The notes: generated by a model from the sequence alone, not told the origin. DNA of 64,000 nucleotides from Planctomycetota bacterium (GCA_016195405.1 JACPZP010000125.1:21665-85664); one strand, 5' to 3'; positions 15,353 through 42,252 are shown, counted from the first letter of the stretch. Program-made: numbers and translations.

Positions 15353-15994
15353 CTATTGCACTTTCATGATCGAATCTCGTCCGCCCTTCAGCACCGCCCG
15401 CACTGGACTCGCATCGAATCCAGCCAACTTCAACGGCAGCGCGATCAACTCGTAGGTTCCCTCCGGTACGCCATCAAGCACCAATCCTTCGAGAATCGCC
15501 ATGTCGTGCCGCAGGAACATTTGGTGCGCCGGCAGATCTTTTGAATCGAACAAGTCCACGCTCGGCGTGTCGATGCCAATCAATACTACCGCTTGTTGAT
15601 GGAGCATGTCCACCAGGACGGGGCTGAGCGCGGCGAAGTCCGTGTTGAAATGATCGGGATTCGGAAACGTCCCCGTCCAGAGCAGCACTCGCGACGCGGT
15701 GATCGGCGAGGTAAGCATCTCGGCCGTGATGCACGCCCCGCGCGGAACCTTGACGCGCATCACCTGACATGGGCCAATGTAATAGTCGAGGCGGCGCTGA
15801 TCAATCGACTGGCCGTCGGCGGCATAATGGCTCGGGGCGTCGGCGTGAGCGCCCAGGTGTACCGTGGCGCGGAGGGCCGACAGGGTGATGCTGTCGCCGC
15901 GCTTCATGTCGAGCAGCACTTCGCGCCGCGGCGGCACGTCGCCGGGCCAGACTGCGAGCCGTTCCGTTATGGCTGGTGAAATATCGTAGATCAT
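15353..15994 (-). CDS. kynB: Kynurenine formamidase (arylformamidase, cyclase family). Start taken at the internal Met MIYDISPAI, preceded by GGAGGAA
   Basis: HxGxHxD-like metal site (VHLGAHADAPSH) and the cyclase-family fold pattern. ORF track gives 15353..16117. Confidence 0.8.
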   Translation of the reverse strand: MIYDISPAITERLAVWPGDVPPRREVLLDMKRGDSITLSALRATVHLGAHADAPSHYAADGQSIDQRRLDYYIGPCQVMRVKVPRGACITAEMLTSPITASRVLLWTGTFPNPDHFNTDFAALSPVLVDMLHQQAVVLIGIDTPSVDLFDSKDLPAHQMFLRHDMAILEGLVLDGVPEGTYELIALPLKLAGFDASPVRAVLKGGRDSIMKVQ

Positions 15995-16188
15995 CCGGTT
16001 CCTCCAGGCCAAAAATGGCTTGCAGGGCTGTCCGCGGGGGGTCGCAATGCACGCAATAATGCCATTAGTTCCCCATTCCCCTGAACGTGATTTTAGTGGT
16101 CGTCCGCCCGGTAACAAACGGCTTGTTGCCAGAACCCTTTTTCTGGCTTATGGTGACGAAGGACCTCTCTAACTCACGAGGTGACGCC

Positions 16189-16692
16189 ATGACGCTCCAA
16201 GCCCCGTTCAACCTCCAAACGTGGATCAACGAGAATCGGAACCTCTTGAAGCCGCCGGTGGGCAACCACATGCTCTTCAATCAGAACTTCATGGTTATGG
16301 TCGTGGGCGGGCCCAACCAGCGCACCGATTTTCACGTCAATCCGACCGAAGAGTTGTTTTACCAGCTCGAGGGCGACATCGTCTTGCGGGTCATGGAAAA
16401 GGGGCAGCCACGCGACATTCCCATCAAGCAGGGCGACATGTTCCTATTGCCGCCGGGCATCCCGCACTCACCGCAGCGGCCCGCCAACACCGTCGGCCTG
16501 GTCATCGAGCGCAAGCGTCCCGACAACGCCGACGACCACATGCGCTGGTTTTGCAAGAAATGCGGCGCCGTCATCCACGACGCCGAGTTTCACCTTGTGG
16601 ACCTGGGCAAGCAACTCAAACCGATCATCGAAGAATACAAGAGCAAGAAAGAGTTGCAAACGTGCAACGCGTGCGGGACCGTCAATGAATGA
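16189..16692 (+). CDS. nbaC: 3-hydroxyanthranilate 3,4-dioxygenase (cupin)
   Basis: MTLQAPFNLQTWINENRNLLKPPVGN, the FHVNPTEE...GDMFLLPPGIPHSPQR cupin metal site, and the C-terminal CxxC...CxxC rubredoxin-like site. Confidence 0.9.
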   Translation: MTLQAPFNLQTWINENRNLLKPPVGNHMLFNQNFMVMVVGGPNQRTDFHVNPTEELFYQLEGDIVLRVMEKGQPRDIPIKQGDMFLLPPGIPHSPQRPANTVGLVIERKRPDNADDHMRWFCKKCGAVIHDAEFHLVDLGKQLKPIIEEYKSKKELQTCNACGTVNE

Positions 16693-16695
16693 AAC

Positions 16696-17706
16696 ATGAA
16701 GATCGACCTCCACACCCACATCCTGCCCAAGACTTGGCCCGACCTGCGCCAGCGTTACGGCTACGGCGGCTTCGTGCAGCTTGAGCATCACGGCCCCGGG
16801 TGTGCCCGGATGACAATCGACGGCAAGTCGTTCCGCGAAATTGAGGACAACTGCTGGGACCCCAAGCGCCGCATTGCGGATTGTGAAAGCCACGGCGTGG
16901 ATGTGCAGGTGTTGTCCACCGTGCCCGTCATGTTCAGTTATTGGGCCAAGCCGCAAGACACGCTCGATCTCGCCCGGCTCCTCAATGATCATTTGGCTGA
17001 ACTGGTGGCCTCGCACCCACGCCGATTCATCGGGCTCGGTACGCTGCCGATGCAAGACGCCGCCTTGGCAATCCGCGAGCTGGAGCGGTGTGTCAACGAT
17101 CTCGGTTTCCCCGGCGTGCAGATCGGCAGCCACGTCAACGGCTGGAACCTCAATCATCCAATCCTGTTCCCGATTTTTCAGCGAGCCGAGAAGCTTGGCG
17201 CTTGCATCTTCGTGCACCCGTGGGACATGCTGGCGAAAGAGCGGATGGAGCAATACTGGCTGCGCTGGCTGGTCGGCATGCCCGCGGAAACGTGTCTGGC
17301 GATCTGCTCGGTCATTTTCGGAGGCGTCTTGGAACGGCTGCCGAAGCTCCGCATCTGCTTCGCGCACGGCGGCGGCAGCTTCCCCGGCACCGTCGGCCGC
17401 ATCGCCCACGGCTTCGAAAGCCGACCCGATCTTTGCGCCGTCGACAACGCCGTCGATCCGCGCGCCTATCTGGGCAAGTTCTATGTCGATTCATTGGTGC
17501 ACGACGCCGCGGCCCTACGGTATTTGCTGGAATTGATGGGCGTCGATCGCGTGGCGCTAGGGAGCGACTATCCGTTTCCACTGGGAGAAGCCGTGCCGGG
17601 GCGGTTGATTGATTCTATGGCGGAACTTTCCGCGGACGTTCGCAAGAAACTAATGGCGGAAAACGCACTAGATTTCTTAGGATTGAAGCAGGAAGGGTTT
17701 TGTTGA
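16696..17706 (+). CDS. 2-amino-3-carboxymuconate-6-semialdehyde decarboxylase (amidohydrolase_2)
   Basis: [11 protein letters not shown]...[11 protein letters not shown]...[14 protein letters not shown] family. 3 bp downstream of the HAAO gene. Confidence 0.9.
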
Positions 17707-17722
17707 GGCAGAGCATCTTGCC

Positions 17723-19000
17723 ATGACAGATGTCTTTCAGCCCGGAGAAGATTTCGCCCGGCAGCTCGATGCCGAAGATCTGCTTCGCCATTTCCGCGAC
17801 CGGTTCCACTTCCCGCGCCGGCCGAATGGCTCACCTTATCATTACTTTTGCGGCCATTCGCTCGGGCTACAACCCAAGGCGGTGCGCCACCTGATCGAAC
17901 AGGAGCTGGACGACTGGGCAAGGCTCGGCGTCGAAGGGCACTTCGAAGGAACGACTCCGTGGTACAGCTACCACGAGATCTTTCGCGATAATGGAGCGAG
18001 GCTAGTCGGCGCCCAGCCCGGCGAGGTTGTGATGATGAACAGCCTCACCGTGAATTTGCACCTGATGTTGGCTACGTTCTACCGACCGACTGGCAAGCGC
18101 CGCAAGATTCTAGTCGACAGCCCGACCTTCCCGTCTGATCTTTTCGCCGTGCAGACACATTTACGCCATCGAGGGGCCGATCCGGCGAACGATCTCCTCG
18201 TCGCCCGGCCGCGGTCCGGCGAGCACCTATTGCGCATGGAAGACGTCGAAACGCTGCTTAATACGCATGGCCATGAGATTGCCGTCGTACTTTGGAACGG
18301 CGTCAACTTTTACACGGGCCAACTTTTCGACTTGCAGCTGCTGAGCGAGATCGGCCATGCGCACGGCTGCGTGGTTGGGCTCGAATTGGCGCATGGAGCA
18401 GGCAACGTCGTTCTGCAACTCCATGATTGGCAGGTCGATTTCGCCGTTTGGTGCAACTACAAGTATCTGAATTCAGGACCTGGCGCGGTCGCCGCTTGCT
18501 TCGTGCATGAAAAACATGGCCGAAACCTCGATTTGCCGCGCCTCGCCGGCTGGTGGGGGACCGATCCGCATACGCGCTTTCAAATGGAAGACGGCGACTT
18601 CAAGGCGCAACCCGGCGCCGAAGGCTGGCAAGTGAGCAACCCGCCGATCTTCTCCTTGGCGCCTGTGCGGGCATCGCTGGCGCTTTTTGACGCAGCGGGA
18701 ATGCCCGACCTCCGCGCCAAATCCGAAAAACTGACCGGTTACCTCCACTACCTGCTCGAAGGGCAGGCAGCCAAGGCGTTCGAGATTATCTCGCCGGCCC
18801 GTCTCGAAGAACGCGGCTGTCAGCTATCACTTTTGGTGCATCGCGAGCCGCGCAAGCTCTTTGACGCCTTGCACGGTGCGGGAATGCTGTGCGATTTCCG
18901 GGCGCCCAACGTGATTCGCGTCGCGCCCGTGCCGCTCTACAATTCCTTTGAGGATGTGTGGATGTTTGCCAACACCGTTAAGACGCTGTCGATGAGTTGA
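17723..19000 (+). CDS. kynU: Kynureninase (PLP-dependent)
   Basis: 425 aa. YHYFCGHSLGLQPK...NSLTVNLH...KYLNSGPGAV (PLP lysine region). Confidence 0.9.
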   Translation: MTDVFQPGEDFARQLDAEDLLRHFRDRFHFPRRPNGSPYHYFCGHSLGLQPKAVRHLIEQELDDWARLGVEGHFEGTTPWYSYHEIFRDNGARLVGAQPGEVVMMNSLTVNLHLMLATFYRPTGKRRKILVDSPTFPSDLFAVQTHLRHRGADPANDLLVARPRSGEHLLRMEDVETLLNTHGHEIAVVLWNGVNFYTGQLFDLQLLSEIGHAHGCVVGLELAHGAGNVVLQLHDWQVDFAVWCNYKYLNSGPGAVAACFVHEKHGRNLDLPRLAGWWGTDPHTRFQMEDGDFKAQPGAEGWQVSNPPIFSLAPVRASLALFDAAGMPDLRAKSEKLTGYLHYLLEGQAAKAFEIISPARLEERGCQLSLLVHREPRKLFDALHGAGMLCDFRAPNVIRVAPVPLYNSFEDVWMFANTVKTLSMS

Positions 19001-20364
19001 TTGTGTCCATTTCAGACGCCCCTCAATTCACGATCGTCGGCTCGGGCCTCGCCGGCGCGCTCTTGGCGTGCTACCTCGGCAAGGCGGGTAAACGCGTCGA
19101 CCTCTATGAGAAGCGTTCCGATCCACGCCGTCATGGGGCGGAGAGCGGTCGTTCGATCAACTTGGCCCTTTCCGTTCGCGGCATCAAGGCGCTAGAGGAA
19201 GTTGGGCTGGCGGACCGCGTGCTTCAGAACGCCATTCCGATGCGCGGGCGAATAATTCATTCGCCGACCGGACAACAGACCTTTCAGCGGTACGGCAAAG
19301 ACGAAAGCCAGGCGATCAACTCGGTCTCACGGGCGGGGCTCAATCTCATCTTGATCGAAGCGGCGGCGCGATATCCCAACGTGCGGATGTACTTCGAATC
19401 TCGCTGCACGGGGGTCGATCTCAAAGACATGGCGGTCGAGGTGGTGGAGGAAGTTGGAGTCTGCAATCAGGAGGCTGACACCCCCCGTTCGCCGCGACAT
19501 ATACAATTCGAGACCCTTGTCGGGGCGGATGGGGCGTATTCAGCGGTGCGGGCGGCATTGGAGAAGCAGGAACGCTTCAACTTTCAGCAGGATTATCTCT
19601 CGCACGGTTACAAGGAATTGACGATTCTGCCGGGACAGGGCGGGACGTTTTGTATGGAGAAGAACGCCCTGCACATTTGGCCGCGACATTCATTCATGAT
19701 GATCGCGCTGCCCAACATCGACGGCTCTTTCACGTGTACCCTTTTCTGGGCGTGCGAAGGGCCCAACAGCTTCGCGGCCATTCAGAGCGAAGCGGACCTG
19801 CTTCGATTCTTCAAGGAACAATTTGCCGATGCGATGCCGTTGTTGCCCAACCTCGCAGAAGAATATTTCCACAATCCAGTCGGGCCGCTGGTAACGATGC
19901 GCTGCTCGCCGTGGCACTTCGAGGATCGGATAGTGCTACTGGGAGACGCGGCTCACGCGGTCGTGCCGTTCTTGGGTCAAGGGATGAACGCCGCCTTCGA
20001 GGATTGCACGGTGCTGGCGCGGTGTTTGGAAAAACAACAGACTGAGGCGGCATTCCAAGACTACGAGCGACTGCGCAAGGAACATGCCGACGCGCTCGCA
20101 GACATGGCGATCGATAACTTTCTCGAGATGCGTGACCGCGTGGCTTCGCGGTGGTTTCTCATTCGCAAGAAGGCGTCGCTCCTGCTCTATAAGCTGTTTC
20201 CCGTCTGGTACGTGCCGCTCTACAACTTGATTCAGTTCACGACCACACCGTATGCCGACGCGCGTGGCCGTGCACGGAAGCAAGATCGCATGGTTTGGCG
20301 CGTCGGAATTGGTGTTCTGCTCGTCCTCACCGGCCTCTTCGTTTGGCTATCTGCATTTCGATAG
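18997..20364 (+). CDS. kmo: Kynurenine 3-monooxygenase (FAD-dependent), C-terminal membrane anchor
   Basis: 455 aa. FAD GxGxxG (IVGSGLAGALLA), the DG/GD motifs of class A flavin monooxygenases, hydrophobic C-terminus. Start overlaps the kynU stop. Confidence 0.85.
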   Translation: MIVSISDAPQFTIVGSGLAGALLACYLGKAGKRVDLYEKRSDPRRHGAESGRSINLALSVRGIKALEEVGLADRVLQNAIPMRGRIIHSPTGQQTFQRYGKDESQAINSVSRAGLNLILIEAAARYPNVRMYFESRCTGVDLKDMAVEVVEEVGVCNQEADTPRSPRHIQFETLVGADGAYSAVRAALEKQERFNFQQDYLSHGYKELTILPGQGGTFCMEKNALHIWPRHSFMMIALPNIDGSFTCTLFWACEGPNSFAAIQSEADLLRFFKEQFADAMPLLPNLAEEYFHNPVGPLVTMRCSPWHFEDRIVLLGDAAHAVVPFLGQGMNAAFEDCTVLARCLEKQQTEAAFQDYERLRKEHADALADMAIDNFLEMRDRVASRWFLIRKKASLLLYKLFPVWYVPLYNLIQFTTTPYADARGRARKQDRMVWRVGIGVLLVLTGLFVWLSAFR

Positions 20365-20381: not shown

Positions 20382-21668
20382 CTACCATTTCCAGGTGGCC
20401 TTGCGAACTTTCGCAGGAACGTAGTTGTCGAGGAACGACCAGCGACCAACGGTTTCACCCCAAATGGCCACAAGGCGAATGACCAGCAGCAACATTTGGT
20501 AGAGCGGCACCAGGAAGAACACCATGCAGATGGGCACGTCGCGGCGGAGATTGTTGCTGAAATATAGAAGGGAGGCCACCTGAATGATTTCGAACACCAG
20601 GTAGAGGAGATACAGGGTGAGGAGAATCCACCCGCCGTTGTCGGGTCCTGCGATGAAGAACCAAATGAACCAACCTAATATGGCGAGCGGACAGAAAAGG
20701 GAAAAGAAGCAAGCATCGACCATGAGAAACAGGTTGCTCCAGGAGAAGTTGGCGTTTCGGAAATCCGCAAGGTCGGAGTGTTTGCGGCAATGGTTGCGCA
20801 CGACTCCGCTTTGCTCCCAGCGCATGCGCTGGCGGATGAGTTGTTTCCAAGTGGTGGGGACCTCCGTCAAGCAGTGCGAATAAGGCGCGAACGCGACCCG
20901 GTAGCCGATCTTCCTAAGCGTCAAAGTCAGGTCGAGATCCTCCGGTGGACCCACGTCCCAGCCCTGTACTTTGTCCAAAGCGTCACGGCGGAAGGCGCCA
21001 AAAGCGCCGGAGACGATTCCCAGAATGCCGAACATCGCGGAGACCATCCGGCCCACAAAGATGGTGCTGAGATATTCATAGGCTTGCAACCAAGTGGCCA
21101 AGCTGGTGAACGAGTTGCGAGCCACGACGCAGCCTGCCACGGCGCCCACGCGAGGGTCCCGAAGTGGCTGCACCACCTCCCAAATCGCCTGCGGACCGAG
21201 TTCCGAGTCGGCGTCGATGACCACCACCACTTCCGCTTGGGTGTAGCGCAAGGCGAAGTTCATGGCTGAAGATTTGCCGCCGCGTTCGGGACGGCTTAGC
21301 ACCAAAACCCCGGAATGGGTGCGGGCGAATTGCTGGGCGACCCCTGACATGTCGTCGATCGAGCCGTCGCTGACGACTATGATCTCCAGCCGTGGATACG
21401 ATCCCCACAGGCCGGCGAGAGTGTGACTTATCATCTCCTCTTCGTTGAAACCTGCGACGACGGCGCACACACTCGGACAATAGGTGAAGCGGGGGTTTCG
21501 AGGCCGGCCGCGAAGCCAGCGCCAGAAGCCGCGCGCGCAATCCATCAAGCAAAGAAAGATCTTCGCCACCGCGTAACGCGGCACGTCAGTTAGCAGCAGA
21601 CCCAGGCCGAACAGGAGCAGCTCGTCCGCATGAAGCGAGGAAAGCCAGTGGATCCAATCGGTGAGCAT
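20382..21668 (-). CDS. Family 2 glycosyltransferase, processive membrane-embedded synthase (Alg8/PgaC/cellulose-synthase-like). Start uncertain
   Basis: 428 aa. GT-A motifs (VVSDGSID, DAD, QRMRW = QxxRW), N- and C-terminal TM helices. The 83-bp overlap with the upstream ORF suggests a later start. Confidence 0.85.
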   Translation of the reverse strand: MLTDWIHWLSSLHADELLLFGLGLLLTDVPRYAVAKIFLCLMDCARGFWRWLRGRPRNPRFTYCPSVCAVVAGFNEEEMISHTLAGLWGSYPRLEIIVVSDGSIDDMSGVAQQFARTHSGVLVLSRPERGGKSSAMNFALRYTQAEVVVVIDADSELGPQAIWEVVQPLRDPRVGAVAGCVVARNSFTSLATWLQAYEYLSTIFVGRMVSAMFGILGIVSGAFGAFRRDALDKVQGWDVGPPEDLDLTLTLRKIGYRVAFAPYSHCLTEVPTTWKQLIRQRMRWEQSGVVRNHCRKHSDLADFRNANFSWSNLFLMVDACFFSLFCPLAILGWFIWFFIAGPDNGGWILLTLYLLYLVFEIIQVASLLYFSNNLRRDVPICMVFFLVPLYQMLLLVIRLVAIWGETVGRWSFLDNYVPAKVRKATWKW

Positions 21669-22584
21669 GATAACCTACCAGTTCCAGCTCGAGGGCCTGG
21701 TGGCAGGGAAAACGCAGTTGGCAGCGCAGGCACTGGGCCACGAGGTCCAGCTCGGGGGCGCTCCAATGACAGTCGAAGCAGGTTTGGCGGCCGCGCAGAT
21801 GCTCGAAATCGGCGCCGACGACCAGGCGGCGCGTGCGGCATTTGGGGCAGACCAACTCGCCGCCGGATTCGAAATCGGCCGCGAAGCCGACATGAGCGCA
21901 GGCATAATGGTGGATGAGGCGGTCCTGGGTGACCCGCGCCGAGCCGCACGCCTGGCAACCGCGACGAAAACTCGGCATTCCCTCGCATCGGGGACAGACG
22001 TGCACGCGGTCCCAGGTGAAGCGTTCGAGCACTCCCAGTTCCGCCCACCGCTCGAGCAAGGCCGCCGGTTGGGGCAGGACATATGCCAATTGGCTCGCTA
22101 CGAAACTCGGGGTCAGGTTTTTTGGGTCCAGTAGGTCGTGGGCGGCACCCCCGAAACGGCCACCTAAGTGCAGATCGGGCGTTTCACCGGGCTCATCGCA
22201 AACGGCCAAGCCGGTGCAGACGAAGCCCCCGCCGGGTTTGTCAAGAACGACGACGACGTCCTGGGTCAGGAGATCGACGGGCGATTCCAACTTCAGTCCC
22301 ATGCCCTCGACGCTCAGATCGACTGCGATGGCGTGGCGGCGCCGCACCAGGTCCGGCGAACAATCGGGAAGCAGGGGGATGACTACGGCCGGCGCTTGAA
22401 TGCCGCGGCGTGGGTTCGCACGCACGGCATGCGGCGCAGGCATATCGTGGATCGTTTCGCCGTCGCCGATGACGATCAAGTCCACGAACGTATCACGCGA
22501 ATTAGGCGGACTTTCCTCGAGCGTAAGCACTTGCTCTTCAGTTGCCGGCGACATTGCGTCTCCCAGAATATTGACTCGCGGCAT
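21586..22584 (-). CDS. PilZ-like domain protein with a C-terminal Cys-rich (multi CxxC zinc-ribbon) domain
   Basis: 332 aa. RANPR (RxxxR), then ~32 aa later DLSVEG (DxSxxG). C-terminal half has CPRC...CQAC...CPKC...CFDC...CLRC pairs. Confidence 0.5.
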   Translation of the reverse strand: MPRVNILGDAMSPATEEQVLTLEESPPNSRDTFVDLIVIGDGETIHDMPAPHAVRANPRRGIQAPAVVIPLLPDCSPDLVRRRHAIAVDLSVEGMGLKLESPVDLLTQDVVVVLDKPGGGFVCTGLAVCDEPGETPDLHLGGRFGGAAHDLLDPKNLTPSFVASQLAYVLPQPAALLERWAELGVLERFTWDRVHVCPRCEGMPSFRRGCQACGSARVTQDRLIHHYACAHVGFAADFESGGELVCPKCRTRRLVVGADFEHLRGRQTCFDCHWSAPELDLVAQCLRCQLRFPCHQALELELVGYHAHRLDPLAFLASCGRAAPVRPGSAAN

Positions 22585-22587
22585 GCG

Positions 22588-23757
22588 TCAGGGAAGCTTG
22601 ACTACGCCCCCGATACGCAAGGCCATCCATTGTGCCGATTCGGCTTGGGGAGACAGGTAAAGCGGTAGGAACTTTTGCCCGGCCGCGGAATAGCGTTTAA
22701 GGTGTTCCGGCGCAGCCTCAAATTGTTGGCCCCATCCGTCCACGGTGGCAGTCATGCGATTGGGGTAGGGTTCCACGCACAAAGCCACCGCGTCGCCGAC
22801 GTTGAAATTCTCCGTCATGGATTGCGGCACGAACACCACCGCCCGCAGCGAGCCCTCCTCGAGGAGAGAAATCACCGGCTCGCCTTCCGGGCAGTGTTCC
22901 CCGGCAAAGTGATGGATCTTGAGCACACGACCGGGGCCGCTGGCCAACACGCGGCCTCGATCCAACTGCTCCTTCACGCGTGCCCGCTCCGCGCTCAAGT
23001 ACGCGATCTTGGCAAGGTGCGGCTTGAGTTGATCGTCGCCGTCCTTTGCCAAGCTCTCGCCCAGGTCGACGTCGCCGGCAAGCAGGATCGTGGCCAGCTC
23101 CTTGTGTTTTTTCATTGCCCGCAGCGATTCCTGAAGCTTCTCGACCTTTTTTTGCTGACCAAGGGTTTCGATGCAAATGCGGTCGAGTTCGGCTTCGGCT
23201 AAGGCTTTCTTGACGTACAAGTTCTCGGCCCGGGCGCGTTCCGCCAAGAGCTTTTGCAGGTTAGCTTGTTCGGCGCGAAAGTTACCCACGCTTTCCAGGT
23301 AGCGCGCGCTGGCGGCGTGGCTTTGGTCGAGGTGGAAGGCCGCCTGCCATTTGAGACGCGCAGTCTCCGCGTCCAGAGACGCCTGTGCTTGCTTGATTTC
23401 GTCATCGAGTTGTTGATAGCGGTGCCTTAACGCCGCGTTCTCGACCATCACGAGCAACTGTCCTTGGCGGACAACCTCTCCTTCGTGAACATGGAATTCG
23501 ACCAGCACTCCGGCGTGCGGGGCCGGCACACGCACCACGCGGCCTTCGACGGTTCCGTAGGCACGGTAACGGAAAAATGAGTCCCAAACCTGGTAGCCGC
23601 CCCAACCGCACGCTGCCACCAACAAGATGCCGATAAACCAGCGACCCTTGGGACGATGATGCACCGGAGTCGGCTCCGCAGGCGCTCGGGCTGGCGCCGG
23701 CGTGGCGCCGCGGTAGTTGGGGTAACCGAATTGGGTTGCGGTTTCTGCCGGATTCAT
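22588..23757 (-). CDS. HlyD-family periplasmic adaptor / membrane fusion protein
   Basis: 389 aa. N-terminal TM anchor, biotin-lipoyl-like beta hairpins flanking a long coiled coil. 4 bp upstream of the PilZ-like gene. Confidence 0.8.
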   Translation of the reverse strand: MNPAETATQFGYPNYRGATPAPARAPAEPTPVHHRPKGRWFIGILLVAACGWGGYQVWDSFFRYRAYGTVEGRVVRVPAPHAGVLVEFHVHEGEVVRQGQLLVMVENAALRHRYQQLDDEIKQAQASLDAETARLKWQAAFHLDQSHAASARYLESVGNFRAEQANLQKLLAERARAENLYVKKALAEAELDRICIETLGQQKKVEKLQESLRAMKKHKELATILLAGDVDLGESLAKDGDDQLKPHLAKIAYLSAERARVKEQLDRGRVLASGPGRVLKIHHFAGEHCPEGEPVISLLEEGSLRAVVFVPQSMTENFNVGDAVALCVEPYPNRMTATVDGWGQQFEAAPEHLKRYSAAGQKFLPLYLSPQAESAQWMALRIGGVVKLP

Positions 23758-24288
23758 GGTAAGGCGGGCTCAATCGGCATGGGCTTCTGGCGGACCGTAC
23801 ACTCAGACATGAAAACTTAGGTCATGGTTGGTTCTTGTCAAAAAATGCGCCGGAAAAATCATTAAAAAGAGCCTTCAAGCGCCATCGACGGCGCGCATTG
23901 TGCTTTCGGCTCATTGAATCTCAGAGCAGCCAATTCTCATGCTACGCAGAGTGACACGTCCCGCGATTTCGAGACCCCCAGCAGAAAATCGTACCGCTCG
24001 AGGGTGAATTCACAAGTGCTTGGCAATAAATGGGATCGGGATTTCGTTTCACTCGAGCGGGACGTTTTGCATGAGGGCGTACTCCCGGAATTGTCCGTAT
24101 TCCCAAACCTGATGACAAAGTGCCAAAGCAATGCCTCCACAAGCAATATCTCCACCTGTTAGCAGAGGATTAAGCGCGGGCTCACGTTGTGGAACATTCG
24201 ACGGGCCGTTAGAAACTCATGTACGAAATCGCTTCGTCTCGGGAAGCATTTAATAGAAGAGTACAAGCCAATAACTGGGAAGGAACGA

Positions 24289-25752
24289 ATGGCGACAAGC
24301 CAGATAAACGGGGTAATGAGACATCTGCGGCGAGTGCTCCGGCCTCGCGAGATAGAACGCACGACCGATGGCAAACTGTTGACGGACTTCCTGCGTCATC
24401 GCGACGAGGGTGCTTTTGAGACCATCGTGCGGCGGCACGGCGGCCTGGTCATGGGCGTTTGTCGCCGCGTGCTTGCGAACACGCACGATGCCGAGGATGC
24501 TTTTCAGGCCACCTTCCTGGTGCTCATCCGCAAGGCCAGCTCCCTGGCGTCGCCGGATCTGCTTGCGAATTGGCTCTACGGCGTCGCCTATAACACGGCT
24601 CTCAAAGCTCGGGCATGGACGGCGAAGCGCCGCCGGAGGGAACAACACTTGACGCATCTGCCTGATACGGAAGCGGCCGAACGAAATGCGGACGAGCGGG
24701 ATTTATGGAACGATCTGCAGCCCTTGCTCGATCAGGAACTCAGCCGCTTGCCCGACAAGTATCGTGTCCCGATCGTGCTCTGCGATCTGGAGGGCAAGAG
24801 CCGGAGGCAAGCCGCGCAGCGAATCGGCTGTCCCGAAGGGACGGTTTCGGGCCGGCTCGCTCGAGCGCGCGCCATGCTCGCCAAGCGGCTCACGCGGCGC
24901 GGCCTAGCGTTGGCTGGAGGATCGTTGGCATTCGTGTTGGCCGAGAACGCTTCCGCGGCCAGCGTGCCAAGCTCGGTGGTGATTACGATTGTCAAGGCCG
25001 CAGGCTTGCATGCGGCAGGGCAGGCGGCGACCGCAAGCATGGTCTCGACCAAGGTTGCTGCTCTCGCAGAAGGAGTGCTCAAGTCCATGATGCTAACCAA
25101 ATGCAAAATCGCGACAGCGGTACTTTTCATCGCGGCTGCGCTGGGATTCAGCGGCCACGGGTTCTTGCAGGCGCTGGCGGATGAACCTACGCAACCAATC
25201 GCCAAGCAAGAACCGCAAGAGCCCAATGGCAAGCCCGCGCAGGACGACGACGTCGGCAAACTCACTTTGCCTCAAGGCCCGATGCCGACTCAGGCATTGG
25301 TGAGTCTTGATGATGCGGGTCAATTGGTCGTGCGAACGCGCGAGGCAGCCTATAAGCAATTCGCTCAGGGGCAACAATTAATGGTGGTCGACGAAATCAA
25401 GACTCGTCAATACAAGCTGGGAGAAGTGCAAGTGTTCGACGTGCGCGTCGAGCCGATTGACCCCAAACAACTTCCGAAGATGCTCGCGAAGGAAGTCGCG
25501 GCCCTGATCATTCGAGGCCGGCAACCGCTCGATCCGCTTCACTTCCGCCTTCATAAGGAAGGGACGCTGGTCTTCGTGATTCCGCTTCCACCTGGGCCTG
25601 CTCCGCCTGCGGCTGCGGGCGGCTTCGGCGGCGGAGGATTCGCAGTGCCTCTTCCACCTGCAGGCGCCGTGCCCGTGCGCAATGGAGTCCCTGTACTCCC
25701 GCCCCCCGTGGCACCCCAGCAGGCTCTGCCAAGCGCGCCGCAGAGACGATAA
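24289..25752 (+). CDS. ECF sigma factor fused to a C-terminal transmembrane / Pro-Gly-rich extension (start at MATSQ; ORF opens at 24187)
   Basis: Sigma-2 region ([20 protein letters not shown]) and sigma-4 HTH ([32 protein letters not shown]), then a TM helix ([14 protein letters not shown]) and a Pro-rich tail. Confidence 0.8.
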
Positions 25753-25831: not shown

Positions 25832-26683
25832 TCAAGCTACACTAGCGCAATAATGAGCACCCCACGCGGCGGGAAGAGCTTCAGGATCGAGGCCGCGAAG
25901 CAACCCCTGCTGCCGATCGATTTCGTCCGCCTTTAACAGATTCAATGCCTGAAGTTGGTCGCGGACTTCGTCGTAGAACATCAACATGTTCTCAATCATC
26001 AGCTCGTTCGACCGGCATTCCGACCAGCCGGCGCGCACACAGCTGTAACCCGCCGCTTCAAGCGATCTGGCTAAGCTCGCGCCCACGTCGGGCGAGAGCC
26101 GCTTAACGAGGTAAAGCTGGTTGATGACTTCCCCCCAAACACGCAGAGGCGCAAGCTCGGTTCGGCCGCTCGCTTCGAGAAACGCGAGGCGGGCCAGCGG
26201 CGCCCGAAAGTCCGGCTCAATGAAACCAACACGCGTTCCCGGTCGAAGGCGAGTGCGAAGGCGGCCAATCATGATTTCAACCATCGGCACATGATGAAGC
26301 ACCGCCCGGCCGACAACCACATCCGCCCCGTCGAGCCATTCTCCGAGCATCGAAATATCGGAAGCGACGGTCTCGAAGCGCGCGGGACCGAGCTTGCCTA
26401 AGCTGTTTCGCGCCTGGGCAAGTAAGCATTCGCTCGCATCGACGCCGATCAGTACGCCGCCCGCGCCAAGACGCCGGAGAATTCGGCGGCTCAGGCCGCC
26501 CGGGCCGCAGCCGAGTTCGATGACTCTGTCGTGTGGTCGCAGCGCCAGCTCGTCAAGAAGTTTCTCGGAAACGTCCGCGAAATGACTGTCTTGGATTTCG
26601 AGTCGCCGTGCGGCGCCTACCGATTGCCCCAGCACATAGTCGTGCGCTGCACTCTTATTTGCACTCACCCTTGCATTCCCCAT
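25832..26683 (-). CDS. Class I SAM-dependent methyltransferase
   Basis: 283 aa. Motif I VIELGCGPGG, motif II GVDASE, motif post-I. Start overlaps the upstream cyclase gene by 19 bp. Confidence 0.8.
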   Translation of the reverse strand: MGNARVSANKSAAHDYVLGQSVGAARRLEIQDSHFADVSEKLLDELALRPHDRVIELGCGPGGLSRRILRRLGAGGVLIGVDASECLLAQARNSLGKLGPARFETVASDISMLGEWLDGADVVVGRAVLHHVPMVEIMIGRLRTRLRPGTRVGFIEPDFRAPLARLAFLEASGRTELAPLRVWGEVINQLYLVKRLSPDVGASLARSLEAAGYSCVRAGWSECRSNELMIENMLMFYDEVRDQLQALNLLKADEIDRQQGLLRGLDPEALPAAWGAHYCASVA

Positions 26684-27894
26684 TTCCAGGCCTTCACCTT
26701 GCCGACATTGCGGGCTTCCAGCGCGTCCATCTCTTGAAAGCCGCTTTTGACCGTGTCGGGTAATTCGTTGAATGTGGTGTTGCCGACGACCATTTCACCG
26801 GGACCGGCGGCCGCCATCAATCGGGCGGCGATATTGATCGGGTCGCCGATGGCCCCCATGTGGGTGCGGCTGTAGGGACGCAGCGAAAGGAACTGAAGGT
26901 TGCCCTGAGCCATGCCGATGTGTACGCCCGAAAACTCCTGAACGCGGTCCAGTTGCCTCTGCCAGTCTTGGGCAACTGAATTGCCGATGCTCAAAAGCCC
27001 CCGAGCCGCTTGAAAGGCGTTGGCTGCGTCCTCGGAGCTTTGCTTGGGAACGCCGAAGAGCCCGATGGCTTCATCGCCGACGAATTGATAGAACATGCCG
27101 CCCCGGTTGATGATCTCGTAGCGGGATTTGGAATAGAACGACGTGAGGCTGTTGCGGACTACCGCGTCGTCGTGGGTGTCGCGGACAAAACTGGAAAACG
27201 AACACAGATCGGCCAGTACCACGACCACCTTGTCGTATTTACCCGGCGGCAATAGCTGTCGCGTCGTGAATTGGTGCTTTTCGCGCAGTTGCCGAATTTT
27301 CCAAAAGCCCAGATGCCAAGTCAGCACCGAACGCAAGTGAGTGTGGTCGTACTTTTCCAGCGAAGCGCCGCCGAATGCATAGAAACCTTTGGCGCGATCC
27401 ACGGCCTGGCGAATCTGGAGAAGACTCTCTTCGGAAATGGCAGTGATGTCGACGCCGAAATTCTGCCGCAACAGGGCCATCAGGCGTTCTTCGTCCCAGA
27501 CCTCCAGCGTCAAACCCGCGCCGGCCAAAACCTGACGAAGCTTCTCGATCGTGTCATCCCAATCAGGCCGTCCCTGCCGGTCCACGAATAGGGTCACTTG
27601 TTGGGCATTCTCCATTGCGGGCGTGCGCGCGCCGTACTTGCGGCCCATATGTTGCAACAGCACCGGCTGCGGATATCCGAACTTGATTTCGACAAAAACA
27701 GGGGGCTGGCCGGGCTGCGAAACGCGAATGTCGGCAAACGCGCCCGAGCTGCCCAAATCAACTTCGCGCTCAATCGCCAGGCATTCGGGTTGAACTTCCT
27801 TGTTTCGCAGGCCCTGGAATCGAAGCAGATCGCAGCACAACTCTTCGAGGAGAAGCCGCAATGGATTCAAGGAACCATCAGAGTGCTCGGCCAT
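26665..27894 (-). CDS. Class III adenylate/guanylate cyclase with an N-terminal ~200-aa restriction-endonuclease-like (PD-(D/E)xK-like) domain
   Basis: C-terminal CHD: VVVVLADLCSFSS...FVGDEAIGLFG...GDPINIAARL. N-terminal half has E...FADIRV...VFVEIKF, i.e. the E/D-(D/E)xK arrangement. Confidence 0.8.
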   Translation of the reverse strand: MAEHSDGSLNPLRLLLEELCCDLLRFQGLRNKEVQPECLAIEREVDLGSSGAFADIRVSQPGQPPVFVEIKFGYPQPVLLQHMGRKYGARTPAMENAQQVTLFVDRQGRPDWDDTIEKLRQVLAGAGLTLEVWDEERLMALLRQNFGVDITAISEESLLQIRQAVDRAKGFYAFGGASLEKYDHTHLRSVLTWHLGFWKIRQLREKHQFTTRQLLPPGKYDKVVVVLADLCSFSSFVRDTHDDAVVRNSLTSFYSKSRYEIINRGGMFYQFVGDEAIGLFGVPKQSSEDAANAFQAARGLLSIGNSVAQDWQRQLDRVQEFSGVHIGMAQGNLQFLSLRPYSRTHMGAIGDPINIAARLMAAAGPGEMVVGNTTFNELPDTVKSGFQEMDALEARNVGKVKAWKWGMQG

Positions 27895-31657: not shown

Positions 31658-32974
31658 ATGCGGAGAAAATCGTCCAGGGTCAGATTGGCGAAGATCGGGA
31701 AATACCAGATCCTCGAAAAGATCGGCACCGGCGGCCAGGGGAAGGTCTACAAAGGGCTTGACCGGAACACGGGTCAATTCGTCGCGATCAAGATGATACC
31801 CGTGGAAGCGGCCGAAGACAGGGAGCAGGGCTTGCGGTTCGCCCAGGAATGTCAGGTCACCAAAAAGCTCGATCACCCTCACATCTTGCGCGTCCTGGAT
31901 TTCGGCATGGAGGGTCAGAAGCCGTTTCTCGTTATGGAATTCGTCGACGGCGAAAACCTGATGCAACGGCTCACCCGCGACGGCAAGATCCCGCCGGCGG
32001 AAGCGGTTCGCTTGCTGTCCCAAGTCGGCCACGCCCTGAATTGGACGCACCAGCGACAACTCATTCATCGCGACATCAAGCCGGCCAACATTCTCATCAC
32101 GAAGAACGGCGATGCCAAGCTCACCGATTTCGGCATCGCCAAGAACCTCGAGGGCGAATTCCAGCTTACGCAGCCCTGCAGTTGGCTCGGCACGCCAAGC
32201 TTCATGTCTCCCGAGCAATTTGAGGACGCCAAACGGGCCGATGCTTTGTGCGATCTCTATTCGCTGGCTGCCACCTTGTACATGACGATTACGGGCGTCA
32301 TCCCCTTTCGGGGCCGCTCGGCGAGCGCCCTGGCCGCGATTTACAAGAAAAAGCTGGCCAACGATATTGTGCCTCCGCGACAACTCGTGCCCGAGACGAG
32401 CGAGCGCGTGAACGCCGCCATCCTCCAAGGAATGCGGGCCGATCGGCGCGAACGCCACGCTTCCATGGCGGCATTTCTGGAAGCGCTTCTCGGAGAGGAG
32501 TCGGCTGCGGCCGCGGCGAATGCCATTAATGCGCGAGCGGATTCCTCCGCGCCGCAGGCGCCCGCTTCCGGGAAAGAACGCAGAATTCTGAAACGCTATC
32601 CCTGCGGCCAAAGCGCCGCCTGCCAGCCCATGGAGAGAGTTGTCCCGTGGGTCGGCAAAGTCGTGAACATCTCCCAGACCGGCCTTTGCGTGGAGTTGCC
32701 GCGCCGCTTCGAGCCCGGCGCCATTCTCCAAATCGCGCTGCCCGCCAAAGACACCGAACGGAACGTCATCGTGCGCGTCATGTGGGTCAAGAGACAAGCC
32801 GAGAAGCTCTGGCAAATGGGATGTCAATACGATTACCCACTGTACGATTTCGAAGTGGACGGCTTTCGCGTCACGAAACGCCGCGGGGACAAAAGTGGGG
32901 AACGGCCGCGCCCACGAAAATCGTCGGCATCCATACCCCGGCCACGGCAGCAGGTCGCAGGCAACGCGCGTTGA
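31658..32974 (+). CDS. Ser/Thr protein kinase fused to a C-terminal PilZ domain
   Basis: Hanks kinase motifs (GxGxxG, VAIK, HRDIKPAN, DFG, SPEQ). C-terminal RRILKR (RxxxR) then NISQTG (NxSxxG) 22 aa later. Confidence 0.85.
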   Translation: MRRKSSRVRLAKIGKYQILEKIGTGGQGKVYKGLDRNTGQFVAIKMIPVEAAEDREQGLRFAQECQVTKKLDHPHILRVLDFGMEGQKPFLVMEFVDGENLMQRLTRDGKIPPAEAVRLLSQVGHALNWTHQRQLIHRDIKPANILITKNGDAKLTDFGIAKNLEGEFQLTQPCSWLGTPSFMSPEQFEDAKRADALCDLYSLAATLYMTITGVIPFRGRSASALAAIYKKKLANDIVPPRQLVPETSERVNAAILQGMRADRRERHASMAAFLEALLGEESAAAAANAINARADSSAPQAPASGKERRILKRYPCGQSAACQPMERVVPWVGKVVNISQTGLCVELPRRFEPGAILQIALPAKDTERNVIVRVMWVKRQAEKLWQMGCQYDYPLYDFEVDGFRVTKRRGDKSGERPRPRKSSASIPRPRQQVAGNAR

Positions 32975-40546: not shown

Positions 40547-40574
40547 CCCCGGCTGACGACCGCCCAAAAGAAAC

Positions 40575-40616
40575 GGCCGGTGAGGTCCTTACCGCCAAGC
40601 AAGCCCCTCACCGGCC
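40575..40616. repeat. Palindromic element GGCCGGTGAGG-(loop)-CCTCACCGGCC, copy 1
   Basis: 11-bp perfect inverted arms around a TCCTTACCGCCAAGCAAGCC loop. Related copies at 42253..42343. Confidence 0.8.
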
Positions 40617-40702
40617 CGGCACCGCCCCGGCGCTCGGTCTGCGCGCCGGGAACGATGTCTCTCCAATTTATCGCAGACCAATCTTCCCAAGGAGTCTTTG
40701 CT

Positions 40703-42229
40703 ATGCGTATTTCATTCTGGCTGCGATCCGCACGTTCCCTCTTCGTGCCGTCCGGCACCGAGAAAGGACATCGTCCCACACGGCTTCGTAAGCGGGCCTT
40801 GGCCGCCCCGTTGAGCGTCGAACGGCTGGAGGACCGGACCGTCCCCAGCACCTTTATGGTCGGCAACCTCAGCGACAGCGGCCCCGATTCGCTGCGGCAG
40901 GCAATCCTCGACGCCAACGCCAACCCTGGCGCCGACCTGATCCGCTTCGCCCCCGCGGCCCGTGACGGCACCATCGCGCTGGCCGGCGGTCAGCTGAGCA
41001 TCACGGACGATCTCATCATCGACGGCCCGGGCGCCGGCCGGCTGGCCGTCAGCGGCAACGACGCCAGCCGAGTCTTCCAGGTCGGCCGCGGCGTGGCCGC
41101 GAGCATCGACGACCTGACCATCACCCACGGGCGAGCCATCGGGCAGGGCGGCGGCATCTTGAATGCCGGCACCTTGACCCTGTCCCATGTCATCCTGTCT
41201 GACAACCTGGTCGTTGGCCTCCCGAGCGCGAGCGTCGTCGTGGACGCCTTCGGCGGCGGCATCTTTAACTCGGGAACCCTCACCGTCGGCCACAGCAGCT
41301 TCGTCCACAACCAGGCGACTGGCGGGGACGGCGCCATTGGCACCACGGGCAGCTCCGCACTCGGCGGGGCCATCATGTCCAATGGGACCGCGATCGCGCC
41401 GGCCACCGCCACCGTCAGTTACAGCAAGTTCCTCGACAACCACGCCATCGGCGGTGCGGCCGGCGCCGGCGCCAGCCGCGCCGGCGTGGGCGGCGCCATC
41501 AACAATGCTACTGGCACCTTCACCGTCAGCCACAGTGTGTTCCGCGACAATCAGGCCGTCGGCGGGCTCGACAATGGCGTCCCGGGCGGCTTCGGCGCGG
41601 GTGCGGGCGGCGCCATCTCGAACGTCGCGCGCTTTGGCAGCGCGTTCCTCTCCGTCAGCCATAGCACGTTCCTCGACAACCGGGCCGTTGGCGGGGCCGC
41701 CGGCAACGGCGGCAACGCGCAACCCGGCAGGGGCGGTGCGATCGCGAACTACATTTTCGGGGGGGTCCCGCAACCCGTGACGGTCACCGCGACCGCCCAC
41801 ATCGACCACAGCATGCTACTCGGCAACCAGGCCATCGGCGGTGCCGGCACCACGGGCGGAACCGGCCAAGGCGGCGGCATCGCGAATTTGAACGGCGGCG
41901 TCCTCTCTGTGTCGAACTCGTTGATCGCCTTGAACCAGGCCATCGGCGGCGCGGGCAACGGCGGCAACGGCGGCAATGGCCTGGGCGGCGGCATCTTCAA
42001 CGGTGGTCCCAACCAAACCGGCACGCCGAGCCTCACGCTCAACCACAGTATCGTCGCGCTCAACCGGGCCGACGGCGGCGTGGCAGTAGGCGGCGGCAGC
42101 GCCGGCCTGGGAGTCGGCGGAGGCCTCTACCTTTCGCCGGGCGGCGTCGCGTCCGCCGACCCGTGGACACTGATCTTCGCCAACGACGCTTCCACAAGCG
42201 ACGATGACGTGTTTGGAATTCTGGCCTAA
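40703..42229 (+). CDS. Secreted Pmp-like (GGAI / FxxN repeat) parallel beta-helix protein with Planctomycete ERLEDRTVPS N-terminal motif (start at MRISFW; ORF opens at 40580)
   Basis: Repeated GGAI (GGAIMSNG, GGAINNATG, GGAISNV, GGAIANY) and FxxN (FVHN, FLDN, FRDN) motifs, Gly-rich beta-helix rungs, N-terminal SVERLEDRTVPS. Confidence 0.75.
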   Translation: MRISFWLRSARSLFVPSGTEKGHRPTRLRKRALAAPLSVERLEDRTVPSTFMVGNLSDSGPDSLRQAILDANANPGADLIRFAPAARDGTIALAGGQLSITDDLIIDGPGAGRLAVSGNDASRVFQVGRGVAASIDDLTITHGRAIGQGGGILNAGTLTLSHVILSDNLVVGLPSASVVVDAFGGGIFNSGTLTVGHSSFVHNQATGGDGAIGTTGSSALGGAIMSNGTAIAPATATVSYSKFLDNHAIGGAAGAGASRAGVGGAINNATGTFTVSHSVFRDNQAVGGLDNGVPGGFGAGAGGAISNVARFGSAFLSVSHSTFLDNRAVGGAAGNGGNAQPGRGGAIANYIFGGVPQPVTVTATAHIDHSMLLGNQAIGGAGTTGGTGQGGGIANLNGGVLSVSNSLIALNQAIGGAGNGGNGGNGLGGGIFNGGPNQTGTPSLTLNHSIVALNRADGGVAVGGGSAGLGVGGGLYLSPGGVASADPWTLIFANDASTSDDDVFGILA

Positions 42230-42252
42230 AGCGAAAGCCAACCAAGAAATGC

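Follow-up and report, generated by a model that had tools for sequence, protein, structure and literature searches.

Organization of the locus

Three genes transcribed leftwards occupy positions 20,382 to 23,757 of the 64,000-nucleotide window (the whole stretch of Planctomycetota DNA that was analysed); their neighbours are genes of the kynurenine pathway and a gene for an ECF sigma factor. They encode an HlyD-type membrane fusion protein (MFP), a regulator with PilZ and TackOD1 domains, and a membrane-embedded GT2 synthase. All three minus-strand open reading frames of the original prediction are present; they and their features are listed below in window coordinates.

22588..23757, minus strand: gene 1, HlyD-type MFP, 389 aa
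23638..23757, minus strand: MFP cytoplasmic tail, aa 1-40, with aromatic motif TQFGYPNY
23578..23637, minus strand: predicted N-terminal membrane anchor of the MFP, about aa 41-60, a hydrophobic stretch in the sequence (FIGILLVAACGWGGYQVW)
21586..22584, minus strand: gene 2, PilZ-TackOD1 regulator, 332 aa from the ATG at 22584, probably 322 aa from the ATG at 22554
22147..22428, minus strand: PilZ domain, about aa 53-146, with RxxxR and DxSxxG motifs
21631..22116, minus strand: TackOD1 domain, about aa 157-318, predicted to bind zinc, with five CxxC and one HxxC
20382..21668, minus strand: gene 3, membrane-embedded processive-type GT2, 428 aa
21207..21215, minus strand: GT2 DxD motif, D152-A-D154, invariant in 13 orthologues from several phyla
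20817..20831, minus strand: GT2 QxxRW motif, Q280-R-M-R-W284, invariant in 13 orthologues
20478..20732, minus strand: GT2 C-terminal hydrophobic helices, aa 313-331, 348-366 and 379-397, from a Kyte-Doolittle scan
21586..21668, minus strand: 83-nt overlap of the gene 2 3' end and the gene 3 5' end
23758..24186, no strand: 429-bp intergenic region between the cassette and the divergent ECF sigma factor gene

The close spacing of the three genes is that of an operon, as had been proposed. The MFP gene ends with a TGA codon at 22588-22590, and 3 nt further on is the ATG at 22584. A second ATG in the middle gene, at 22554, lies about 5 nt downstream of an SD-like GGGAGA and agrees with the NCBI 322-aa model (P0001) and with the start of most homologues; these favour it as the start codon, so that the gap between MFP and regulator genes is probably 33 nt. 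The regulator and GT2 genes overlap by 83 nt, which suggests translational coupling; similar overlaps of about 30-130 nt occur in most orthologous loci, and the GT2 start at 21668 (MLTDWIHWLSSL) is kept in orthologues. From its position, the intergenic region is presumed to contain the cassette promoter. A scan of the operon for sigma-70 promoters and intrinsic terminators gave counts not above those of shuffled controls, and so neither supports nor opposes co-transcription.

The membrane fusion protein and the GT2 synthase

The assignment of the first gene as an HlyD-type MFP is borne out by a match to Pfam HlyD_3 above its gathering score (36.6 bits versus a cutoff of 22.2, E 8.3e-9), and there are further NCBIfam matches to RND_mfp (2.2e-16), NHLM_micro_HlyD (3.1e-14) and type_I_hlyD (3.5e-12), all under their own cutoffs. 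The protein probably consists of a short cytoplasmic tail, one transmembrane anchor and a periplasmic adaptor region, with lipoyl-like matches at aa 74-107. The anchor is preceded by a basic stretch, HRPKGRW, and in at least 60 orthologues an anchor with a PKRPKGR[WLF]F motif aligns with this region. A G-[FY]-[PQR] or [FY]-R-F motif recurs across orthologues 25-40 residues ahead of the anchor, and the tail is, speculatively, a candidate docking peptide.

The third gene was correctly predicted to encode a processive-type membrane GT2. It matches Pfam Glyco_tranf_2_3 (1.1e-33), Glycos_transf_2 (2.3e-26) and Chitin_synth_2 (8.3e-11), and the catalytic D, DxD, ED and QxxRW motifs (D100/D101, D152xD154, D244xD246 and Q280RxRW284) are invariant across 13 orthologues, as is a family-specific R295-K-H297 downstream of QxxRW. 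Its best curated match is PgaC_IcaA (TIGR03937; E 4.9e-42, profile positions 38-381 of 407), with a score of 144.3 bits against an equivalog cutoff of 422.3. Its identity is 29% to E. coli PgaC (over 333 aa, E 5e-35) and 23% to E. coli BcsA (E 6e-7). The closest solved relative by sequence is 6yv7, an archaeal mannosyltransferase-like minimal GT2 (E 7.6e-20; profile 7e-35), and NodC is among the NCBIfam matches (1e-21). The PDB relatives also include hyaluronan synthases (HAS), the similarity reaching into the HAS membrane region, and by these comparisons the GT2 is closer to PgaC and hyaluronan synthase than to BcsA. By analogy with BcsA and HAS, the cluster of C-terminal helices would form a translocation channel; the Kyte-Doolittle scan also identifies an amphipathic or interface segment at aa 203-226.

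The PilZ-TackOD1 regulator

The middle protein carries the RxxxR, DxSxxG and five CxxC motifs attributed to it, together with an additional HxxC. In the 332-aa numbering, RxxxR is R55-A-N-P-R59 (nt 22408-22422), its arginine columns being kept in 74 and 82 of 96 homologues, and DxSxxG is D89-L-S-V-E-G94 (nt 22303-22320). The latter lies 29 residues past RxxxR, a spacing also found in 50 of 120 homologues. A scan of the window protein with Pfam PilZ (PF07238) gives no match at E<1 and does not reach the gathering score, and a profile of the regulator family has no significant match among PDB sequences. The absent Pfam match is resolved by a scan of the whole family, in which 20 of 85 aligned members match PilZ (best 1.6e-8), and by fold comparison: the AF2 model of the regulator has a mean pLDDT of 88.2, and the strong matches in a fold search with the two-domain model are all to the PilZ barrel. 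The middle protein thus has a beta-barrel PilZ fold with intact c-di-GMP motifs, as originally predicted, and from the motifs and the model we infer that it binds c-di-GMP.

The second half of the protein matches TackOD1 (PF18551) with 96.5 bits against a cutoff of 32 (E 1.9e-27; profile positions 52-177 of 188). Its cysteine motifs are CPRC197-200, CQAC210-213, H226xxC229, CPKC246-249, CFDC269-272 and CLRC285-288, and the 11 cysteines of these five CxxC and one HxxC motifs are invariant or nearly so in two family alignments; zinc binding is predicted from this ligand pattern. TackOD1 was defined by five CXXC and one HXXC motifs, with a function that "remains obscure" (Galperin et al. 2018), and in the literature later than 2018 we found no paper that assigns it a role. 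The zinc ribbon had been regarded as a module added to a PilZ protein. That view needs revision, in that the ribbon is this named Pfam domain, the constant element of the cassette, and PilZ is the part that is swapped.

Conservation of the cassette and exchange of input domains

Relatives are encoded in 144 of 150 pattern-matched stretches from species-representative genomes. Unsupervised clustering of the proteins of 83 non-duplicate loci found through TackOD1 recovers only three recurrent families, TackOD1 itself (83), GT2 (77) and MFP (72, with the MFP orthologue upstream in 72 of the 83), and the flanks differ between loci. About 70 species-level genomes have the three genes in the same order with unrelated flanks, an arrangement that is far beyond chance. 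The relationship also holds reciprocally. A search seeded with GT2 recovers TackOD1 in all 48 metagenomic loci having at least 1 kb upstream, with TackOD1 adjacent in 44 and MFP in 41, and the linkage still holds where GT2 identity has fallen to 31-40%. The three genes form a conserved module, in which this family of synthases keeps TackOD1 as its constant partner from one bacterial phylum to another.

There are several variations on this organization. In Draconibacterium the order is HlyD, a T9SS protein, TackOD1 and GT2, and in Fodinibius it is REC-TackOD1 followed by GT2. Locus L090 has TackOD1-GGDEF, GT2, OEP and MFP; L083 has REC-TackOD1-GGDEF-like, OEP and HlyD; and L023 is an exception, in which no GT2 lies within 7 kb of MFP and TackOD1. 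The best matches include no protein that fuses TackOD1 to GT2 or to MFP. A linked outer-membrane export gene had been suggested as a thing to look for; neither an outer-membrane component nor a sugar-precursor gene is present in the window flanks examined, and the OEP (TolC-like) genes are found in the relatives L083 and L090. No outer-membrane factor, precursor enzyme or modifying enzyme is conserved across the 83 loci, where the other neighbours are lineage-specific only, and there is no conserved ABC or RND pump gene near the cassette.

The domain attached to TackOD1 is variable. A PilZ motif is present in strict form in 31 of the 83 loci and in relaxed form in 14, and is degenerate or absent in the other 38. 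REC replaces PilZ in 17 loci and accompanies it in others, and roughly one locus in four lacks both REC and any recognisable PilZ motif. Genuine receivers are found in L007 and L064, and every cassette with an inserted CBS-GGDEF cyclase gene has an Arg57 pseudo-receiver. In a second clade of cassettes the TackOD1 protein has a C-terminal degenerate GGDEF- or PelD-like domain, for which the GGDEF, GGDEF_2 and PelD_GGDEF matches are weak (E 1e-4 to 0.05) except in L126 (2.7e-16). Where a cassette lacks PilZ, it has often acquired a GGDEF-like domain or a gene for a diguanylate cyclase, and these repeated gains tie the module to c-di-GMP. We infer that TackOD1 is the output or coupling module and that PilZ is one of several interchangeable inputs.

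Proposed function and alternative explanations

The reading that we prefer, with a probability of roughly 0.55, is a self-contained, c-di-GMP-gated and MFP-coupled exopolysaccharide synthase and export module, in which TackOD1 would dock the sensor onto the synthase. Judging from its motifs and relatives, the GT2 would polymerise a nucleotide-sugar in the inner membrane and thread the chain through its own helices. The MFP, anchored by one helix, would carry the conduit on across the periplasm as far as an outer-membrane channel whose gene lies elsewhere, a role suggested by its family and by the BgsBA-TolC and XcsAB-TolC systems. The middle protein would be the cytoplasmic regulatory subunit. 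Its PilZ domain, with the fold and motifs described above, would bind c-di-GMP, and its zinc-stabilised TackOD1 would dock on the synthase, and possibly on the MFP cytoplasmic tail, to pass the signal on as activation; the strict two-way co-occurrence, the gene overlap and the swapping of input domains point to this docking and activation. Counted against the module are the TackOD1 domains reported for Thaumarchaeota in type IV pilus rather than GT2 loci, along with the lack of fusions among the best matches, of a Pfam PilZ match in the window protein and of linked outer-membrane or precursor genes in the window, locus L023, and the quarter or so of loci in which neither PilZ motif nor REC is recognised.

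A second proposal, which we hold tentatively and at slightly under even odds, is that TackOD1 is a dedicated coupling domain through which several kinds of sensor could each be connected to a single family of GT2 synthase-exporters. TackOD1 would be a zinc-stabilised fold without a solved relative. Among its sensors, PilZ and degenerate GGDEF would respond to c-di-GMP and a genuine receiver to phosphorylation; a further one would be an Arg-bearing pseudo-receiver with its own cyclase. It may clamp the cytosolic domain of the GT2 together with the aromatic peptide of the MFP tail, which would rebuild the effect of the Alg44 fusion without a covalent link. The cassettes of Planctomycetota, Bacteroidota and Balneolota would then represent a new, phylum-spanning class of exopolysaccharide machinery.

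Three other explanations place the control or the product elsewhere. The PilZ-TackOD1 protein could be a c-di-GMP-responsive transcription factor resembling the PilZ-type regulator MrkH, its zinc ribbons contacting DNA so that the cassette is regulated at transcription and not by post-translational gating of the enzyme. We consider this unlikely. Archaeal REC-wHTH-TackOD1 architectures, which speak for the preferred module, have a separate DNA-binding domain, and the separate wHTH argues that TackOD1 is not itself a DNA binder. Decidedly unlikely is a GT2 product that is not a secreted high-molecular-weight polysaccharide but an oligosaccharide, a periplasmic or cell-wall glycan, or a lipid-linked sugar, made by a NodC- or PcManGT-like enzyme with the MFP as its efflux route. 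The 6yv7 enzyme as closest solved relative, the NodC match and the lack of linked outer-membrane or polymer-modifying genes are consistent with such a product, but QxxRW, the C-terminal helix cluster and the full-length similarity to PgaC and HAS are features of processive synthase-translocases. Moreover, partnership with an MFP is documented for the polymer synthases BgsBA and XcsAB, and an MFP serving the efflux of small molecules would need an ABC or RND pump, for which no conserved gene lies nearby.

We regard it as very improbable that PilZ in this lineage is a structural relic which does not bind c-di-GMP, the cassette being controlled in another way, for instance by a Cys-rich TackOD1 that senses metal or redox state. 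The window protein does lack a Pfam PilZ match, the motifs are degenerate or absent in 38 of 83 orthologues, and TackOD1 with its 11 cysteines is the conserved part; however, both canonical motifs are present at canonical spacing in the window protein and are kept in relatives, and PilZ-less cassettes often acquire a cyclase gene or a GGDEF-like domain. A survey also argues against a relic, in its statement that fusion proteins keep the c-di-GMP binding of their PilZ domains.

The two-way, cross-phylum link to the GT2 and MFP cassette gives TackOD1 a concrete and testable function, that of a polysaccharide synthase coupling subunit. The cassettes also display a modular design, in which a mere exchange of the domain joined to TackOD1 would place one synthase under c-di-GMP, a two-component phosphorelay or a private cyclase. 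The surface polysaccharides and biofilm control of Planctomycetota are poorly known, and the cassette would provide a compact three-gene exopolysaccharide system. Because it is found in cultured strains, it is open to deletion, overexpression and transfer to other hosts.

Comparison with known systems

TackOD1 was described in archaeal REC-TackOD1 response regulators, C-terminal to the signal-input domain (Galperin et al. 2018). The archaeal proteins have REC inputs and are reported in type IV pilus loci, whereas the bacterial cassettes are bound to GT2 and MFP and have PilZ, REC, pseudo-REC or GGDEF-like inputs. PelD-type systems resemble the cassettes in that a separate receptor protein serves the synthase, and the second clade shares with them a degenerate GGDEF, but the window protein uses PilZ instead of GGDEF. 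TackOD1 is not known from Pel systems.

PgaCD/IcaAD is both the closest curated family and the closest characterised sequence, with a size and helix layout similar to those of the cassette GT2. PgaCD binds c-di-GMP directly; the cassette has a different regulator, and export would use the MFP rather than the PgaA porin. None of the partner genes pgaD/IcaD, pgaB (deacetylase) and pgaA (porin) is present in the window or related loci. Identification as a plain PgaC orthologue was rejected on the score, 144 versus 422 bits, and on these absent partners.

The label 'Alg8/Alg44-type' is reasonable as a working analogy only, the best curated match being PgaC_IcaA and no alginate genes being nearby. 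In Alg8-Alg44 of Pseudomonas aeruginosa PilZ and MFP are fused in Alg44; here they are separate, PilZ being fused to TackOD1, and the cytoplasmic tail of the MFP is only 40 aa. There is no alginate model among the 25 NCBIfam matches of the GT2 or the best 60 of its 71 PDB matches, and none of algD, K, E, G, X, L, I, J, F and A is linked in the flanks, with no such family recurrent in the 83 loci. The likeness would be one of mode of working, not of family membership.

The GT2-MFP-TolC systems BgsBA and XcsAB are closer architectural precedents than alginate. BgsBA-TolC of Sinorhizobium meliloti makes a mixed-linkage beta-glucan from a bicistronic operon with the MFP gene ahead of the GT2 gene. 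Activation is by c-di-GMP, which BgsA binds via its own C-terminal domain, and the system needs an unlinked TolC and is proposed to form a tripartite GT2-MFP-OMF complex. The cassette likewise has its MFP gene first in an operon with GT2, but its predicted receptor is a separate protein encoded between the two, which would be coupled through TackOD1, and its GT2 is shorter (428 aa) and PgaC/HAS-like. In the cyanobacterial cellulose system XcsAB-TolC, a GT2 and an HlyD-like MFP are often encoded in one operon with the TolC-like channel elsewhere, and control by c-di-GMP is through a PilZ domain that is part of the synthase itself, which is related to BcsA. The GT2 of the window lacks a fused PilZ; the protein, 428 aa long, stops after the C-terminal helices. 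XcsAB and the cassette have in common a GT2 synthase, an HlyD-like MFP and PilZ-type control, the last being predicted for the cassette.

Organization of the cassette

The three consecutive minus-strand genes of the original prediction are present as open reading frames, and the window carries a single copy of this cassette:

22588-23757, minus strand, gene 1, HlyD-type membrane fusion protein (MFP), 389 aa
21586-22584, minus strand, gene 2, middle protein, 332 aa from the first ATG
20382-21668, minus strand, gene 3, GT2 synthase, 428 aa

The stop codon of gene 1 is separated by 3 nt from the ATG of the middle gene, which has an alternative ATG at 22554 with a Shine-Dalgarno-like GGGAGA immediately 5' of it; this second start agrees with the 322-aa NCBI gene model (P0001, from a Planctomycetes MAG and listed as "hypothetical") and with the start in the majority of homologues. 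The first 83 nt of the GT2 gene overlap the 3' end of the middle gene, and the GT2 start at 21668 is kept in orthologues (MLTDW.HWLSSL).

The middle protein

In a Pfam scan the middle protein matches TackOD1 (PF18551, E 1.9e-27) in its C-terminal half and no other domain. Galperin et al. (2018) defined TackOD1, with its five CXXC motifs and one HXXC, as an output domain found in response regulators of Thaumarchaeota, present "also in some bacteria" and of "obscure" function; an earlier survey had noted this arCOG at type IV pilus loci of Thaumarchaeota. All of the motifs reported earlier for this protein are found, namely RANPR (55-59), DLSVEG (89-94) and five CxxC pairs, together with an HxxC. 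The CxxC and HxxC motifs supply 12 putative metal ligands, from which about three Zn per chain are predicted. The N-terminal half is a PilZ domain, because the two c-di-GMP motifs are canonically spaced and form conserved columns among 96 homologues, 20 of the 85 aligned family members have individual Pfam PilZ matches (best 1.6e-8), and a beta-barrel spans residues 50-134 of the AlphaFold model (mean pLDDT 88).

The synthase and the membrane fusion protein

The GT2 has the expected QxxRW motif (QRMRW, 280-284) and a DAD at 152-154. Its best curated match is PgaC_IcaA, nearly full length (E 4.9e-42) but far under the equivalog cutoff, and scores against NodC and cellulose synthase models are much lower. 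Its identity to E. coli PgaC is 29% (E 5e-35) and to BcsA 23% (E 6e-7), and its closest solved relatives are 6yv7, a minimal archaeal cellulose-synthase-like GT2, and hyaluronan synthases, with BcsA and chitin synthases ranking lower. These matches, the catalytic motifs, which do not vary in orthologues spanning several phyla, and three hydrophobic helices C-terminal to the catalytic domain together assign it, at the level of sequence, to the processive synthases embedded in the membrane; membership of the PgaC, BcsA or Alg8 families is not demonstrable. Its predicted cytosolic domain covers aa ~60-300.

Gene 1 exceeds the threshold of Pfam HlyD_3, in agreement with its predicted HlyD-type identity, and matches several NCBIfam MFP subfamilies, all under their thresholds. 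Its layout is a short cytoplasmic tail followed by a single hydrophobic anchor. Across MFP orthologues of the relatives' loci L002-L081 the tails are of low complexity apart from a common aromatic motif, G-[FY]-[PQR] or [FY]-R-F, placed 25-40 residues N-terminal of a conserved juxtamembrane PKRPKGR[WLF]F. This motif and an invariant triplet in the synthase are candidate contact points:

23638-23757, MFP cytoplasmic tail with the short aromatic motif
20775-20783, GT2 R-K-H triplet (aa 295-297), 11 residues past QxxRW, invariant in 13 of 13 cassette GT2s compared and with no counterpart in the alignment to E. coli PgaC

Conservation of the module

The cassette is a conserved module rather than a coincidence of this window. 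Nearly all homologues of the middle protein come from Planctomycetota, and in the first five contexts the order MFP, TackOD1 protein, GT2 is retained with different flanks. Scanning species-representative genomes added 80 loci; by tblastn, nearly every one has the GT2 downstream and the MFP upstream, both on the strand of the TackOD1 gene. When all ORFs of 83 non-duplicate loci were compared with one another and clustered without supervision, the only families to recur widely were TackOD1 (83 loci), GT2 (77) and MFP (72), the loci without GT2 or MFP lying mostly at contig ends. Behind these three come clusters of antisense shadow ORFs or of lineage-specific neighbors, and the conserved set includes no gene for an outer-membrane factor, a precursor enzyme or a modifying enzyme. 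The co-occurrence is strict in both directions: a reverse search of metagenomes seeded with the GT2 gave 80 loci (31-62% identity), and all 48 having at least 1 kb of upstream sequence include a TackOD1 ORF, directly adjacent to the GT2 in 44, with an MFP in 41. Among 1.84 billion proteins the family profile recovers 2,251 cluster representatives, of which 228 reach E <=1e-30. In all, about 130 loci (L001-L171) were gathered, and the cultured strains that carry the cassette include Novipirellula rosea JCM 17759 (L047), Novipirellula sp. SH528 (L048), Rhodopirellula maiorica SM1 (L054), Posidoniimonas polymericola (L006) and Fodinibius saliphilus (L088).

The pairing of TackOD1 with GT2 reaches beyond Planctomycetota. 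Fodinibius (Balneolota) has a REC-TackOD1 protein (REC, receiver domain) followed by a GT2, in one MAG TackOD1 abuts the GT2, and Draconibacterium (Bacteroidota; L085) has the order HlyD, type IX secretion protein, TackOD1, GT2:

L085:1088-3700, PKD-domain protein of 870 aa bearing a sorting domain for type IX secretion, between the MFP and TackOD1 genes

Linked outer-membrane export genes, for which a search had been suggested, are found in two relatives, though not in the conserved set of 83 loci: L090 encodes TackOD1-GGDEF, GT2, a TolC-like outer-membrane gene (OEP) and an MFP, and in a Brocadiaceae locus an OEP and an HlyD gene adjoin the TackOD1 protein.

In a Gemmataceae MAG (L023:5610-10437) the genes next in line after MFP and TackOD1 encode an epimerase/dehydratase and a member of the UDP-glucose/GDP-mannose dehydrogenase family, with no GT2 within 7 kb. 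A degraded copy (L091:7001-9380), made up of fragments of TackOD1 (167 aa) and of the GT2, adjoins transposase genes. Two non-planctomycete loci (L088:3026-6923 and L091:3401-7014) share a similar gene trio upstream of the TackOD1 gene (~725-809, 352-367 and 117-120 aa); the trio has no precomputed Pfam match, and its middle gene matches the cassette MFP profile weakly.

Interchangeable input domains

TackOD1 is constant, and the domain fused to it varies. The PilZ motifs are strict, as in the window, in 31 of 83 loci and relaxed in 14; in 17 a receiver stands in place of PilZ, and further loci encode REC-PilZ-TackOD1 proteins of ~600 aa. By alignment to a CheY sequence, the receivers in L007 and L064 are canonical, and those of the Fuerstiella-type cassettes are pseudo-receivers that have the phospho-acceptor Asp57 replaced by Arg and have lost Thr87 and Lys109. 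Exactly these cassettes carry an inserted gene, and six of its eight copies retain both GGDEF and the RxxD I-site:

L065, L067, L069, L071, L073, L076, L079 and L081, CBS-GGDEF diguanylate cyclase gene, placed after TackOD1 and before the GT2

An Arg57 pseudo-receiver without a detected cyclase gene also occurs in L074 (a short contig), L077 and L078. Within the 64-kb window there is no cassette-type GGDEF gene. A second clade, of Bacteroidota type, has a TackOD1 protein of ~470 aa with a C-terminal, mostly degenerate GGDEF-like domain. Each variant therefore couples TackOD1 with a c-di-GMP-related or phosphorelay module.

Surroundings in the window

The flanking genes include a compact kynurenine-pathway cluster, convergent with the GT2 and ending 18 nt from its stop codon, and a divergent sigma factor gene across a 429-bp intergenic region:

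15353-20364, downstream, kynurenine-pathway cluster: 3-hydroxyanthranilate dioxygenase, Amidohydro_2 enzyme, kynureninase and FAD monooxygenase (plus strand), and a Cyclase-family protein, possibly kynurenine formamidase (minus strand)
24187-25752, plus strand, upstream, ECF-type sigma factor with regions 2 and 4 and a ~290-aa C-terminal extension that is hydrophobic over one stretch and Pro-rich in its tail
26665-27894, minus strand, class III adenylate/guanylate cyclase domain protein (E 1.2e-5); its gene overlaps the beginning of 25832-26683, a methyltransferase gene
31658-32974, plus strand, Ser/Thr protein kinase (Pkinase E 1.4e-53) fused to a C-terminal PilZ (E 4.7e-9)

The kinase-PilZ fusion is a candidate second c-di-GMP receptor. 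We note that G+C content rises from ~0.59 to 0.62-0.68 at 38001-52000.

Proposed mechanism and comparison with known systems

We propose that the GT2 polymerizes and translocates a polysaccharide, and that the MFP would bridge to a TolC-like channel encoded elsewhere, an arrangement suggested for BgsBA-TolC and XcsAB-TolC and supported by the linked OEP genes of the two relatives. The bgsBA genes have been transferred to a heterologous host. A GlcNAc-rich product would accord with the affinity of the GT2 to PgaC and hyaluronan synthases. PilZ would bind c-di-GMP, and TackOD1 may dock this sensor onto the synthase and so activate it; the docking, suggested by comparative genomics, is the weakest step.

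That the middle protein is instead a c-di-GMP-dependent transcription factor like MrkH seems improbable, given the position of its gene in mid-operon, the overlap with the GT2 start, a co-occurrence resembling that of a subunit, and the archaeal REC-wHTH-TackOD1 architecture. A PilZ domain surviving as a relic is unlikely in the window protein, which retains both motifs. It is possible that the GT2 product is not a polymer, as its resemblance to 6yv7 and NodC would allow, but this is a poorer fit to the motif set and to the partnership with an MFP than a processive synthase is.

Synthase-dependent, MFP-coupled exopolysaccharide secretion gated by c-di-GMP is an already known kind of system; for a separate TackOD1-based regulatory subunit with interchangeable inputs we found no description in the searchable literature. 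The cassette differs from pga systems in having no pga partner genes, and from BgsBA-TolC and XcsAB-TolC in that its synthase has no receptor domain. The predicted Alg8/Alg44 type holds for the manner of working but not for membership, as there is neither a PilZ-MFP fusion nor any alginate partner gene; in operation the cassette would be like Alg8-Alg44, BgsBA-TolC and XcsAB-TolC.
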